From IMG/VR virus record IMGVR_UViG_2713896902_000001: a DNA stretch of 31,164 bases, one strand, 5' to 3'. Position numbers and translations under genes: made by a program. The stretch is from a virus. Taxonomy: Duplodnaviria > Heunggongvirae > Uroviricota > Caudoviricetes. The notes below the pieces were generated by a model, which was not told the origin of the DNA, did no database searches, and was given only the letters and a program-made list of their open reading frames with translations. Positions 21,642-30,212 of this stretch are shown one piece after another (position 1 is the first letter of the stretch; each line of letters opens with the position of its first letter).

Positions 21642-21753
21642 TGTTGGTTCAGTTGGTTCAGTTGGTTCAATTTGTAAAGAGCGTTGTTTTATAAGGATTT
21701 TATTCTTTTTGTTGAACCAACACTGAACCAACAACACGGCATTTTGAACCAAC
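21642..21753. repeat. ori-like iteron cluster: 3 tandem GTTGGTTCA, AT-rich spacer, 3 inverted copies (TGAACCAAC)
   Basis: ggtgttggttcagttggttcagttggttcaatttgtaaagagcgttgttttataaggattttattctttttgttgaaccaacactgaaccaacaacacggcattttgaaccaacac immediately 3' of the primase gene. Confidence 0.6.
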
Positions 21754-21850
21754 ACAATGTGACTGAATTGATGTGCACAACACCTGGCTGGCATTAGAGA
21801 GTGTTTTACGAAATCTGAACACCACATCAACTGGTTTCAGTGGGAGATTG

Positions 21851-22309
21851 ATGATGAAGATAATCGCAAAGGCTTTTCATCATGTATTTGGCAAAGTATC
21901 CGATTTGCCATCTGTAATACCGATGAACAACAGAAGGGAGACGCTGCTTGATGTGGTTGTGTTCCCATACATAGACCTTTCTGAACCAATGAAAGCAACT
22001 CTTTTCAGAAAGTATCTTGGCGACTTTAAACGCCGTTTTACAGGCGTTAACGGGATGGTTGATATCTGCGCCATCAGAGATATTGTTGAACTTGCAGGGA
22101 TTAATTTGTGGGGAGAAGCGGCAGCAGCATACAAATGGCTTGAACGCCTGCACTGTGTTTCATTCAGTGACATGAGTGCTGATATCGCTTTAATGGTTCC
22201 TCACAAAATCAATATGGTCTTTGCTGGTGGCAATTACACTTATCCATGGAACAAGGAACAAAGAGAGAACAGGAAAGCTCACGCCATGAAGAGTAATGCG
22301 ACTCCATAA
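21851..22309 (+). CDS. hypothetical protein (152 aa)
   Basis: Track ORF 21773..22309; start placed at ATG 21851 with GGGAGA RBS, since the track start lies inside the iterons. Confidence 0.5.
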   Translation: MMKIIAKAFHHVFGKVSDLPSVIPMNNRRETLLDVVVFPYIDLSEPMKATLFRKYLGDFKRRFTGVNGMVDICAIRDIVELAGINLWGEAAAAYKWLERLHCVSFSDMSADIALMVPHKINMVFAGGNYTYPWNKEQRENRKAHAMKSNATP

Positions 22310-22363
22310 ATATAGTTTTTAGAGTCCATAAAAAACTGTCAAAACTTGACATACAGAACGATG

Positions 22364-22395
22364 CCACCAGCTACTGAGCGGTGGCATTTTCTTGT
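22364..22395 (+). terminator. Rho-independent terminator candidate
   Basis: GCCACCagctactgagcGGTGGC followed by attttcttg; a TTGACA -35-like element sits just upstream at about 22346. Confidence 0.45.
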
Positions 22396-22488
22396 GCTAT
22401 TCGTTTCACATTTTGCAATGAACATGATGAATGTTGCGTTTTATGAAACTATAATAACTGTTGTTTTATACAGTTCTAAGGGGGCGTT

Positions 22489-22650
22489 ATGGCTATTTCA
22501 GTAAAGCCGGTATTGATAAGTGAGAAGCAAATGGAAGCGATAAAGAAAATTCAGGAAGAGCAGCGTAAAAAATCAGGAATTGGAGTAGCGCCAACTCTGC
22601 ATGAAATTGCACGAGGGTTAATAGATAAGGCGCTGGCAGGCTGTATGTGA
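22489..22650 (+). CDS. hypothetical small protein (53 aa), possibly RHH-like
   Basis: AAGGGGG RBS then ATG 22489; MAISVKPVLISEKQMEAIKKIQEEQRKKSGIGVAPTLHEIARGLIDKALAGCM; below track cutoff. Confidence 0.35.
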   Translation: MAISVKPVLISEKQMEAIKKIQEEQRKKSGIGVAPTLHEIARGLIDKALAGCM

Positions 22651-22666
22651 AAATGGATGGCACCGC

Positions 22667-23128
22667 ATGGAACTAAAATTTATTGATAACCCGGTGCGAT
22701 TACAGGCCTTTCTTAACGAGCCTGCCAATACCGAAAATATTGTTGAGCCGGGGCACACGTACTACATCAAGCCTGATGCGGTATATCTCGGCATCTACGA
22801 AGGATTGGTGCTGGCTGGCGTTCATGAAGTGCGTAACTTCTGGCATAGCATTGTTGAATGTCATGCGGTGTACGACCCCGGATTCCGTGGTGAATATGCA
22901 CTGCAAGGGCATCGATTATTCTGCAAATGGCTTCTCGAAAACTCACCATTCCTTAACAGCATCACTATGGTTCCTGACACCACGAAATACGGACGGTCAA
23001 TTATCCGTTTGCTTGGCGCTACCCGTGTTGGTCACCTGGCCGATGCATATATCAGATGTGGTAAACCCGTCGGCGTAACGCTTTATCAGTTAACTCGGCA
23101 ACAATATAAGGAACTCAGCGAATGTTAA
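22667..23128 (+). CDS. hypothetical protein (153 aa)
   Basis: Track ORF; stop overlaps the next gene start. Confidence 0.6.
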   Translation: MELKFIDNPVRLQAFLNEPANTENIVEPGHTYYIKPDAVYLGIYEGLVLAGVHEVRNFWHSIVECHAVYDPGFRGEYALQGHRLFCKWLLENSPFLNSITMVPDTTKYGRSIIRLLGATRVGHLADAYIRCGKPVGVTLYQLTRQQYKELSEC

Positions 23129-23799
23129 TTACCCATATAGCTCATAAACATCTCAATCGTGCCGTATACGAAAAAGGCGGTGATGGTGGTGCCTCTAAAG
23201 CTCAGGCGAAGGCCCAGCAGCAGGCAATTGATTTGCAGCGCGAGCAGTGGAATACGGTGATGAATAATCTCAAGCCGTATGCAGAAGTCGGATTGCCTGC
23301 TTTACAACAACTACAAGGGCTGATGACTCTGGAAGGGCAGAATAAAGCCGCGAATGATTTCTTTGGTTCTGGTTTATATAAAACACAGGCAGATCAGGCC
23401 CGTTATCAGAACCTTGTCTCAGCAGAAGCTACCGGGGGGCTTGGCTCAACAGCTACCAGTAACCAGTTATCTTCCATTGCGCCCATGCTTTATAACAATT
23501 GGCTTAGTGGGCAAATGCAAAATTATGGAAACCTGCTAAATGTCGGGATGAATGCGGCATCAGGGCAGGCAACGGCTGGGCAAAACTACGCCAATAATAC
23601 CGGACAACTCTTGCAGGGGCTTGGCGCTATTCGTGCAGGTCAGGCGCAGCAGCCATCCAGTCTTGCGCGTGGTATTGGTGGGGCAGCATCAGGCGCTTTA
23701 GCGGGTGCGCAACTTGGTTCCGTTGTTCCTGGAATAGGTACTGCGGCCGGCGCTATTGGTGGTGGGATTATTGGTCTTGTTGGGGGGCTTGGATTCTAA
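23122..23799 (+). CDS. Gly/Ala/Gln-rich protein with C-terminal glycine-zipper hydrophobic tail (225 aa); ejection/internal-virion-protein-like
   Basis: C-terminus GIGGAASGALAGAQLGSVVPGIGTAAGAIGGGIIGLVGGLGF; first of three translationally coupled genes. Confidence 0.6.
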   Translation: MLITHIAHKHLNRAVYEKGGDGGASKAQAKAQQQAIDLQREQWNTVMNNLKPYAEVGLPALQQLQGLMTLEGQNKAANDFFGSGLYKTQADQARYQNLVSAEATGGLGSTATSNQLSSIAPMLYNNWLSGQMQNYGNLLNVGMNAASGQATAGQNYANNTGQLLQGLGAIRAGQAQQPSSLARGIGGAASGALAGAQLGSVVPGIGTAAGAIGGGIIGLVGGLGF

Positions 23800-28684: not shown

Positions 28685-28691
28685 CTAATAA

Positions 28692-28707
28692 GCCCGGTAC
28701 GCCGGGC
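28692..28707 (+). terminator. hairpin terminator candidate after the lipoprotein gene
   Basis: GCCCGGtacgCCGGGC directly after the stop codon. Confidence 0.4.
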
Positions 28708-28828
28708 ATTCATGCCCCTATTATTCATGAATCGCTTTTTCTGGAAGGTATGCGACAAACGTTAAGTGACATTGCCTACACATTCGGGGCGGGATTTCAA
28801 ATCCACTCCCAGTTGATGGGGCCGTTAC

Positions 28829-29204
28829 AGTACGCGCATATCCGCTTTATGTGAAACAGGAAGATTTTTCTGATATCACTGCACAGCAAAACACCAATTT
28901 CGGGACAAGTACGCGCGCGAGGGGTATCAGTTGCAAAAAATTTTGCAACTACGTCCGACCAGTACGCGCACGATGGAGGGGAGTACCATAAAACTGTTCT
29001 CTACATAAGTCAGAGTGGTGGTGATGTGTTGATTATCGGCGTATATGCGCACAGGACGCGCTATGACGATGTTTGATGCGGGTACACCATCACATGTATC
29101 TGGTGTGATAAATCGCGTTACATGACATCTCATGTTGTGCTGGTGGTTATCACGACGTTCTGAATCTGGCCTTTGCCTGATATTTTGCGACAAGTACGCG
29201 CGCG
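28829..29204. repeat. intergenic repeat set: AGTACGCGC x4, including a 16-bp exact direct repeat GACAAGTACGCGCGCG x2, and a perfect 22-bp palindrome
   Basis: AGTACGCGC copies near 28829, 28908, 28961, 29193; palindrome AGTTGCAAAAAATTTTGCAACT near 28929-28950. Confidence 0.5.
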
Positions 29205-29232
29205 TAGCATCGACAGCATACACATTGGATAT

Positions 29233-29454
29233 TCATTTTGTGACCAATGCGATAAGTAGCGGGATAAGAATTGATAAAATCAACAGGCCGATGATCCACT
29301 TTTGATTTTCACTGGCCTTATCTCTATTTTCATCAATCTTATCCATAATTCGACGCTCTAAGCCGTGCATATCACCGCGAATGGCAATTATCTCATTGCG
29401 AACATCCGAGAAGTGGTTGGCTTGATGTTCAATGTGTGGCGTTCTGCCTTTCAT
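29233..29454 (-). CDS. small tail-anchored membrane protein (73 aa), XhlA/holin-like architecture
   Basis: GGTGAGGA RBS; N-terminal coiled-coil-like region then C-terminal TM helix WIIGLLILSILIPLLIALV. Confidence 0.55.
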   Translation of the reverse strand: MKGRTPHIEHQANHFSDVRNEIIAIRGDMHGLERRIMDKIDENRDKASENQKWIIGLLILSILIPLLIALVTK

Positions 29455-29533
29455 GCCTGATCCTCACCCATCGTCACCACCTGCTGGTGTATAAAGGTAT
29501 TGGCCCAAGCAGCTTTCCAATGGGCACTCATGT

Positions 29534-29989
29534 TTATACGCTGACCTTACAATCAATCACCGCTTTTAACTTTTCAGCATTGCTTCCCTGACGCTTCCAC
29601 GCGCTGTAAATATCTTTATCCCACGCTTTACCAGCTTTTGTTTGATAGCCTGCTTCATTGATCCGTTCAGCTATCACACGCCCATTATCAAATCCCTGTT
29701 GGATGGTATCGGCAATGATCTTTATAACTGCCGTTTCGTTATATGGCTTTGGTGGGATGTTCGGCTTTCCGGCAATAAGCGACGCAGCGGCTTTTTCCAT
29801 GCGCTCCACCAGCCCAAGCATTCGTGAATCAATAGACTTTTCCGGCTGTCCCAGCTTCATGCGAATCGCATCAACAAGCCAGGAGGTTTTATCCCCTCCA
29901 GAAGCGAGAACAGACCGATTAAACTCATCCTGCAATTCAGATGGGATGCGGAACGCGATCAGATTAGATTTGCCCATTGCAAAGACCAT
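29534..29989 (-). CDS. ribbon-helix-helix-like DNA-binding protein with C-terminal domain of unknown function (151 aa)
   Basis: N-terminal LIAFRIPSELQDEFNRSV...SWLVDAIRMKLG fits a beta-strand/helix/helix RHH pattern; upstream of the membrane protein gene on the same strand. Confidence 0.6.
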   Translation of the reverse strand: MVFAMGKSNLIAFRIPSELQDEFNRSVLASGGDKTSWLVDAIRMKLGQPEKSIDSRMLGLVERMEKAAASLIAGKPNIPPKPYNETAVIKIIADTIQQGFDNGRVIAERINEAGYQTKAGKAWDKDIYSAWKRQGSNAEKLKAVIDCKVSV

Positions 29990-30091
29990 ATCAGTGAGTA
30001 ATATCCATACAGTATACCACTGTATAACACTGTTATACGCTCAAATATCAGCCAGAAAATAACGGACCAATCACAAAGCTATCGCTGTGTT

Positions 30092-30212
30092 GTTGGTTCA
30101 GAGCTGGGCTGTGTTGGTTCAAAATGAGTTGATGTTGGTTCAATATTTCAGAAAAAACACAATAAAAACAACGCTCTTTACAAATTGAACCAACTGAACC
30201 AACTGAACCAAC
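30092..30212. repeat. second iteron cluster, approximate reverse complement of the 21642-21753 cluster (crr-like)
   Basis: Three spaced GTTGGTTCA, AT-rich spacer, then tandem TTGAACCAACTGAACCAACTGAACCAAC; reverse complement of the tandem block plus about 21 bp of spacer matches cluster 1. Confidence 0.6.

Follow-up and report, generated by a model that had tools for sequence, protein, structure and literature searches.

The described replicons closest to the locus treated here are those of the phage-inducible chromosomal islands (PICIs), which include the Staphylococcus aureus pathogenicity islands (SaPIs). In these islands the origin lies directly 3' of rep and consists of two opposed iteron sets around an AT-rich region (PMC6092414, legend to Fig. 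2; PMC9371898), at which the SaPI Rep helicase loads itself after its C-terminal winged-helix domain has bound the iterons (PMC6092414; PMC9371898). The DNA analysed here, in the following called the window, is a stretch of 31,164 nucleotides from a virus of the Caudoviricetes (IMG/VR record IMGVR_UViG_2713896902_000001), of which about positions 11568 to 30896 are one integrated PICI of the EcCIMP1 type at thrW. In this island a unit of iterons around an AT-rich spacer is found twice: directly after the primase gene (module A) and, inverted, about 8.4 kb downstream (module B). We interpret A and B as two inverted copies of the island's origin unit that act together as a double origin, an interpretation to which we assign a probability of roughly 0.6.

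In phage P4 a single protein, alpha, serves as primase, helicase and initiator; its helicase belongs to superfamily 3 (SF3; D5/PF03288), and it binds, through a C-terminal winged-helix domain, short iterons at two sites in cis that lie kilobases from each other, one of them just after the replicase gene. The crr site, which is distinct from ori and required in cis, consists of two direct 120-bp repeats; knowledge of ori and crr reportedly goes back to Flensburg and Calendar in 1987 and to Ziegelin and co-workers in 1993. The plasmids R6K (gamma, alpha and beta), P1 (incA) and F (incC) have one initiator on separate iteron arrays, with looping that activates distant origins (R6K) or handcuffing that acts as a throttle. 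Their initiators are of the Rep/pi type and recruit the host DnaB, and the arrays are mostly direct repeats without an AT-rich element of their own. SV40 large T antigen and papillomavirus E1 form head-to-head double hexamers on palindromic origins, the halves of which must be adjacent.

Two inverted copies of a probable origin unit

The iteron GTTGGTTCA is present in the window in 12 exact copies, where 100 shuffles gave 0.24 copies on average and never more than 2, and all 12 are confined to cluster A (21643-21753) and cluster B (30092-30212). The first of these clusters begins 26 nt past the stop codon of the gene for a 919-aa TOPRIM and DUF927 primase, and consists of three tandem copies on the plus strand with a 9-bp period (at 21643, 21652 and 21661) followed, past an AT-rich spacer, by three copies on the minus strand (at 21713, 21724 and 21745, with 11- and 21-bp spacing). 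Cluster B shows three spaced copies on the plus strand with a 21-bp period (at 30092, 30113 and 30134) and, past its spacer, three tandem copies on the minus strand (at 30186, 30195 and 30204). As a complete unit, module A spans 21636-21756 on the plus strand, directly after rep, with tandem iterons at 21643-21669, the AT-rich spacer at 21670-21712 and inverted spaced iterons at 21713-21721, 21724-21732 and 21745-21753. Module B, the inverted copy of A, spans 30092-30219 on the minus strand, with spaced iterons at 30092-30100, 30113-30121 and 30134-30142, the AT-rich spacer at 30143-30185 and tandem iterons at 30186-30212. Each spacer measures 45 nt between the 8-mer cores and is 78% A+T.

A repeat finder returns two inverted arms of 55 nt, 21636-21690 and 30165-30219, with 100% complementarity and a distance of 8474 nt between them; each arm is made up of 7 nt, the tandem block (27 nt) and 21 nt of spacer. 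By local alignment the homology extends over 21636-21756 versus 30110-30219 (110 aligned positions, 92% identical), and the third spaced iteron of B, at 30092, falls just outside it. A sequence-only reading of the window had described three direct iterons, an AT-rich spacer and three inverted iterons after the primase gene, recurring some 8.4 kb downstream as an approximate reverse complement that shares the tandem block and about 21 nt of spacer. Every element of this description is borne out: the 9-mers stand well above the shuffled background, and self-alignment of the window, which had been proposed beforehand as the test, shows a homology that goes beyond isolated 9-mers. Scans of both clusters detected neither sigma-70-like promoters nor terminators, and an Rfam scan of 21.5-31.2 kb gave no match.

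In the opposed iterons around an AT-rich spacer, A and B each resemble the PICI/SaPI replicon (SaPI1, SaPIbov1, EcCICFT073), and A does so also in its place directly 3' of rep. The published origins, however, show one unit, whereas the family of the window island typically has two mirror-image units, and in the window island and EcCIMP1 these are 8.4 kb apart with P22-type ejection genes in between. EcCIMP1 is a PICI that is excised and transduced by the P22-like phage Kapi1 (PMC11773190). It has gene order, thrW attachment site and primase family in common with the window island, and its sequence holds both modules in the same arrangement. In the literature searched no published description of a double or split origin arrangement was found, nor one of the iteron string.

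The same earlier reading had likened the two clusters to ori and crr of P4. What stands of this is the presence of identical initiator iterons at two cis sites 8.4 kb apart, A and B, since the iteron variants shared by the two sites track the C-terminus of the primase (see below), as expected of two sites for one initiator; membership of the P4 group does not stand. Unlike crr, B repeats the entire origin unit once, in inverted orientation and with its AT-rich spacer, and relatives with one unit exist. The replicase of the window is of the DUF927 type, similar to SaPI Rep and Cch, and not SF3. Neither of the P4 alpha signatures PF03288 (Pfam) and TIGR01613 (NCBIfam) matched the primase; the former has been used as a marker of alpha (PMC8628076), and a structure of the alpha origin-binding domain, 1ka8, is cited in a passage of PMC2777425. 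The only genes in common with P4 are ash and an alpA-like helix-turn-helix (HTH) gene; the annotations of L001, L003 and L085, which are near-identical RefSeq islands, include no psu, sid or delta, without a dedicated hidden Markov model search of every open reading frame (ORF). From the arrays of R6K, P1 and F those of the window differ in being complete mirror-image origin units for a predicted self-loading helicase.

The primase and its proposed reading of the iterons

The sequence evidence makes it very probable that A and B are primase-binding origin modules. Pri-Rep, the 919-aa primase-helicase (18858-21617, plus strand), has a Zn-ribbon, a Toprim domain, a DUF927 helicase region and a putative C-terminal origin-binding domain, which we propose to be the iteron reader. 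Its Pfam matches are DUF927, Zn_Ribbon_Prim and Toprim_3 only. The helicase region matches SaPI Rep (8tch, E=1e-11) and Cch of SCCmec, and the C-terminal region likewise resembles these proteins. A model of the C-terminal domain was obtained from a 34-sequence alignment (a single-sequence AlphaFold prediction of the last 150 aa, with a pLDDT of 38, was unusable), and the predicted fold resembles the iteron-reading end of SaPI Rep; a profile of the domain had no match among the PDB sequences even at E<=10. Sequence and model together indicate that Pri-Rep is a homolog of the SaPI self-loading helicases, with a C-terminal winged-helix origin-binding domain.

At least ten iteron variants occur in the family (GTTGGTTC, TGTTGTCT, TAACCCGT, GTCGGTTC, TACCCGAC, GGTCGGTT, TAACCCAC, TTATCCCA, GGTGGTTC and CGGGTTCA/CGTGGTTC), and the variant is always identical between both units of a locus. 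The primases were compared in an alignment of 30 sequences and 973 columns, in which the classes concerned are similarly diverged, at about 80% identity to the window protein. Fixed differences between the GTTGGTTC class (n=8) and the TGTTGTCT class (n=5) are restricted to six columns, five of which lie in columns 943-949, where the former class has QRKSPRI and the latter QGRV-RED. The motif QRKSPR[IV] is kept in 16 of 16 GTTGGTTC-class proteins, and the one-base iteron variant GTCGGTTC pairs with QRKTPRI. In the model this seven-residue stretch forms a terminal strand-turn-strand after a helix, consistent with the wing of a winged helix. The co-variation and the model thus provide strong indirect evidence that the C-terminus of the primase reads the iterons of both modules. 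In the B allele of EcCIMP1 and L083 the spacer and the inter-iteron sequence have diverged and all six 9-mers are exact, which points to selection on the iterons.

As an alternative binder of the iterons the product of a hypothetical 151-aa gene (29534-29989, minus strand) was considered, which is transcribed away from module B and the homolog of which adjoins module B in most split relatives. It was set aside, because the gene is absent from many double-origin loci and the iterons track the primase C-terminus. The protein has no Pfam, NCBIfam or PADLOC match; judged by eye, its N-terminus may be a ribbon-helix-helix.

The mechanism that we envisage for the double origin is as follows. Pri-Rep would read the 9-bp iterons via its winged-helix-like C-terminal domain and then, as has been established for SaPI Rep, load itself as a helicase at the AT-rich spacer, which it would melt. 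The usual origin of the family would be a back-to-back pair of mirror-image units within about 300 bp after pri-rep. In the window island this pair appears to have been pulled apart, with 8.4 kb of ejection-protein and accessory genes in between, so that in the excised circle of 19.3 kb the mirror-image units would be 8.5 and 10.8 kb apart. Most likely the separated units would still cooperate, the helicase being loaded in opposite senses at A and B. Occupancy of B by Rep may also influence the expression of perC, because module B abuts that gene. Doubtful, in our opinion, is a more far-reaching version in which each half-origin loads one Pri-Rep helicase in a fixed direction and remains functional kilobases away from the other, the gap is a privileged slot for cargo, and Rep bound to B couples perC to replication. 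Were it true, with the units firing towards each other, replication after induction would reach the ejection-protein and accessory genes between them first and over-amplify them.

Arrangement of the modules and rival explanations

Two sets of relatives were used: a species-level set of 58 loci, for which one genome per species was searched with the primase and the iterons were mapped per locus, and a set of 80 IMG/VR loci, which probably shares some genomes with the first (about 135 loci overall). Second modules were found by iteron mapping, blastn-short being too insensitive. Contiguous pairs, of about 260-340 bp directly after the primase gene, are present in 26 of the 58 species-level loci; 14, including the window, have split pairs (0.2-9.1 kb), the second modules of which are inverted, downstream and 76-92% identical to the first; the remaining 18 have a single unit, with about 10 kb of downstream sequence visible in 13 of them. 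In the IMG/VR set 34 of the 80 loci have contiguous pairs, 16 have split pairs (by 5.9-9.6 kb) and 25 a single unit, which brings the approximate combined counts to 60, 30 (0.2-9.6 kb) and 43, respectively.

In the contiguous loci of class II (L038, L048, L049, L052 and L058) the order is tandem, AT, spaced and then spaced, AT, tandem, with both spacers AT-rich, which is the product expected from joining A and B of the window. Since both units are adjacent in most relatives that have two, we regard the window as carrying a split double origin and not an origin with a remote enhancer. The contiguous form has a likeness to the origins of SV40 and the papillomaviruses, being a mirror-symmetric origin for a self-loading initiator-helicase, and by analogy suggests one hexamer per half and bidirectional unwinding; the difference is that the PICI halves tolerate a separation of up to 9.6 kb, if both are active. 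The split state occurs in at least seven scattered places in the primase tree, interleaved with the contiguous and single states, and it appears that the architecture changes often, via rearrangement or module exchange. Among complete E. coli genomes about 407 of 5426 (about 7.5%) have a full-length A-type module. Of the 529 E. coli records that have any module, 60 were sampled at even spacing; 42 of these genomes have an A-type module, all 42 with at least two module copies, and 18 records have a B-type copy only. The pair is thus no peculiarity of the window assembly.

One locus has more than two units: the 14.5-kb locus of Yersinia pekkanenii (L036) holds three double-origin copies, at about -4.5, +0.03 and +1.2 kb from the primase stop used. 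An HNH-endonuclease-annotated protein (P0093) is associated with its primase region, and the gene may be interrupted or duplicated.

It is quite possible, though not probable, that only A fires and that B is an auxiliary Rep-binding array of the crr, R6K or handcuffing type, serving as a looping enhancer or a copy-number brake. The arrays lie anywhere from 0.2 to 9.6 kb apart, as would be expected of a distance-tolerant looping element, and single-module islands exist. Moreover, in the contiguous loci of class I (L006, L010, L024 and others) the second array keeps its iterons around a spacer of normal GC content (26-44% A+T), that is, binding without an unwinding element. An extra array that lacks such an element, as in handcuffing, is thus seen in class I, but not in B of the window. 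There, as in all other split loci, B retains a spacer of 45 nt, as long as that of A, with 73-84% A+T, which is hard to explain if B never melts.

Several observations weigh against the double origin. The low A+T content of the second spacer in class I leaves no unwinding element there, which suggests that the conserved role of the second unit is Rep binding and not firing. Single-module relatives with an intact primase are common, and the second unit is therefore not obviously required. In L003, for instance, module A and a primase of 99.8% identity are present, and B is replaced by a different upstream region of perC. The sequence-only reading had named relatives with one cluster and normal replication as a finding that would speak against it; such relatives do exist (L003 and about 13 species-level loci), although the correspondence is one of form only. 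The co-variation in the split class comes almost wholly from one iteron type, with L044 as the sole exception. The paper on EcCIMP1 makes no mention of an origin, and the word "iteron" is absent from its text (PMC11773190). Finally, an intact B persists next to perC in islands that are degraded or have a DUF5906 replicase (L002, L082, L083, L084).

Such orphan B modules beside perC, without a cognate DUF927 primase, are present in about 120 of 527 module-bearing E. coli genomes, with sites at L002:21100-21220, L082:11008-11128, L083:11008-11128, L084:11008-11128 and L004:12008-12107. The orphan-B islands examined either have the unrelated DUF5906 replicase with iterons of its own or are degraded, and nearly all iterons of the orphan modules are intact, one being mutated in L002. 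Along the backbone these islands share about 96-99% identity with the window island, so that a recent swap of the replicase module is enough to explain the intact orphan B.

The DUF5906-replicase islands (L002, L082 and L084) have their own iterons, ACCTGTACCAC, in two inverted clusters about 1.1 kb apart; in L002 the clusters are at 13012-13119 and 14121-14235, flanking two small ORFs. These islands are a parallel two-cluster design with an unrelated initiator. In L003, where B would be, three GGTATCCA repeats are found upstream of perC (L003:19440-19520), beside a divergent alpA/xis-like gene.

The position of B beside a regulator gene raises a further explanation, in which B, bound by Rep or another island protein, mainly controls transcription of perC, of the divergent 151-aa gene or of both, and has no role in replication. 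The gene for the PerC-family regulator (30249-30536, plus strand; Pfam PerC, E=2.6e-33) lies directly downstream of module B, the tandem iterons of which stop 36 nt short of the perC ATG. This distance is constant in window-type islands, the adjacency is kept in EcCIMP1 and in contiguous class I relatives as well, and the B plus perC units remain intact in islands with a different replicase. We nevertheless consider control of perC as the main function improbable. From lineage to lineage the second array changes its iterons in step with the primase C-terminus, which points to Rep; the 151-aa gene is missing from many array-bearing loci; in L015, L020 and L028 perC follows module A and B is located elsewhere; and the intact orphans are accounted for by the recent replicase swap just mentioned. 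The failure to detect a sigma-70-like promoter at either cluster does not favour this explanation either.

The inverted repeats might also be substrates of recombination that flips or exchanges the 8.4-kb cargo cassette, as the sequence-only reading had proposed as its alternative. The flanking inverted homology, perfect over 55 nt and 92% over about 110 nt, would be suited to this, the cargo forms a mosaic from one island to another, and B contains several BLAST breakpoints (at query position 613, or 30112 of the window). At the variable positions of the shared spacer (21670-21690 and 30165-30185) A equals B in the window (GAGCGTTG) and in EcCIMP1 (GAGTATTG), a weak hint that occasional gene conversion between the inverted arms may take place; in L001, by contrast, the two arms differ at these positions. 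All complete E. coli genomes were searched with a chimeric query representing the junction that a flip between the arms would produce, and none of the 551 genomes that carry these sequences matched it over at least 80% of its length. An inversion polymorphism was rejected on this ground. There is no invertase or other recombinase gene between 21.6 and 30.3 kb, the resolvase at 609-1148 belonging to a different element, and we regard recombination as a very improbable function of the repeats.

That B is a functionless relic, either of a duplicated origin or of a second, inverted island, is hardly credible. Orphan copies do occur in degraded islands (L004, L083), but the iterons of B are exact where flank and spacer diverge, and the pair is retained in at least seven scattered clades of the primase tree and in many genera. 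The homology to A stops 7 nt past the tandem block of B and no remnant of a primase is found beside it. An origin of B in a second inverted island was rejected for these two reasons, and because B abuts perC in contiguous relatives too.

The island, its cargo and what the double unit may mean

The gene order of the island is integrase, alpA-like HTH, antirepressor, ash, primase, virion-related genes and perC, and its ends are copies of the last 18 nt of tRNA-Thr (direct-repeat family D3). The attL core, a copy of the thrW 3' end located by alignment to the tRNA-Thr/int junction of L001, is at 11568-11585 (plus strand), and the attR core, an imperfect copy, at 30879-30896 (plus strand). ARAGORN detected no intact tRNA in the window, which positions the island in tandem behind another element. 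The tyrosine integrase (11752-12966, plus strand) is 98% identical to the integrase annotated beside tRNA-Thr in L001, and the same island is found beside thrW/proA in at least 51 complete E. coli genomes. The stretch 1-11481 is a separate small element of lower GC content (34-43%), in tandem upstream of the island. It encodes a serine resolvase (609-1148, minus strand), an HTH protein, a major-capsid-E-like protein (6155-7183), a 614-aa ORF, a Dit-like tail protein (9353-10066) and a tyrosine integrase (10147-11481, minus strand), and perhaps represents a second satellite-like element that shares the thrW site.

Just inside module A, about 30 nt past its last spaced iteron, lies the conserved motif CTGGCTGG (21784-21791, plus strand). 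Of 61 loci, 33 have CTGGCTG on the plus strand within 420 nt past the primase stop, for the most part at +150 to +170, against a background of about 0.6 per kb on both strands; this position is the centre of the contiguous double origins in relatives. A second site of the motif in the window is at 30049-30055 (minus strand), and it is also present past the origin of the unrelated DUF5906 replicase (L002:13133-13146). The motif could be a priming or promoter signal.

The description of the two clusters as bracketing cargo is right as a description, the segment between the modules being a variable accessory region. It begins with a 178-aa ORF with a GTG start (21773-22309, plus strand), of uncertain coding status, which has no family match and a homolog in L034 only, and a conserved 53-aa ORF (22489-22650, plus strand), which precedes the virion-protein genes in most relatives and has tblastn matches in more than 30 loci. 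Next comes a P22-type DNA-ejection module (22667-27835, plus strand), recognised by Pfam (DUF2824, P22_gp7, Inj_translocase, SLT), PHROGs 651 and 770 and the RefSeq annotation of L001. It consists, all on the plus strand, of genes for a gp14-like protein (DUF2824; 22667-23128), gp7 (23122-23799), gp20 (23799-25118) and a gp16-like protein with an N-terminal SLT lytic transglycosylase domain (25109-27835).

The stretch 27986-29454 varies among otherwise identical E. coli islands. It comprises a 232-aa ORF (27986-28684, plus strand), a non-coding region and a 73-aa ORF (29233-29454, minus strand). The non-coding part (28829-29205) has four AGTACGCGC-containing repeats, such as ATTTCGGGACAAGTACGCGCGCG at 28897 and ATTTTGCGACAAGTACGCGCGCG at 29182, which recur in the variable region of L002 and L003 and have no Rfam match. 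A 98-aa ORF in this region (28927-29223, minus strand) is unlikely to be a gene, since the reading frame is broken in its homologs. PADLOC gave no match to a defence system among the seven ORFs scanned (21773-22309, 27986-28684, 28927-29223, 29233-29454, 29534-29989, 13109-13990 and 25109-27835).

The content between split modules is lineage-specific: P22-type ejection proteins in the window island, SLT-domain proteins in Cedecea and Rosenbergiella, Dit, baseplate hub and gpV spike in Serratia, a tape measure protein in Leclercia and a Tlde1-domain protein in a metagenome-assembled genome of Erwinia. Genes for virion DNA delivery were also seen after the primase at L037:13002-16125, L057:16228-18912, L062:16258-18012 and L023:14448-16250. 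This suggests that the satellites supply their own ejection or tail-tip proteins, matched to the helper.

The PICIs are widespread phage parasites, the origin of which has so far been described as a single iteron and AT-rich unit. In the family of the window island a double unit is conserved, the halves of which can be as much as 9.6 kb apart, also in the experimentally characterised EcCIMP1, the PerC-like protein of which silences the LEE virulence genes (PMC11773190). This raises the questions of whether bidirectional replication by a self-loading helicase needs two mirror-image loading sites, whether these could act at a distance, and whether the second unit takes part in the control of copy number or of perC. 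The co-variation of primase and iterons pinpoints a seven-residue specificity stretch, and could help to predict or re-engineer the replication specificity of satellites.

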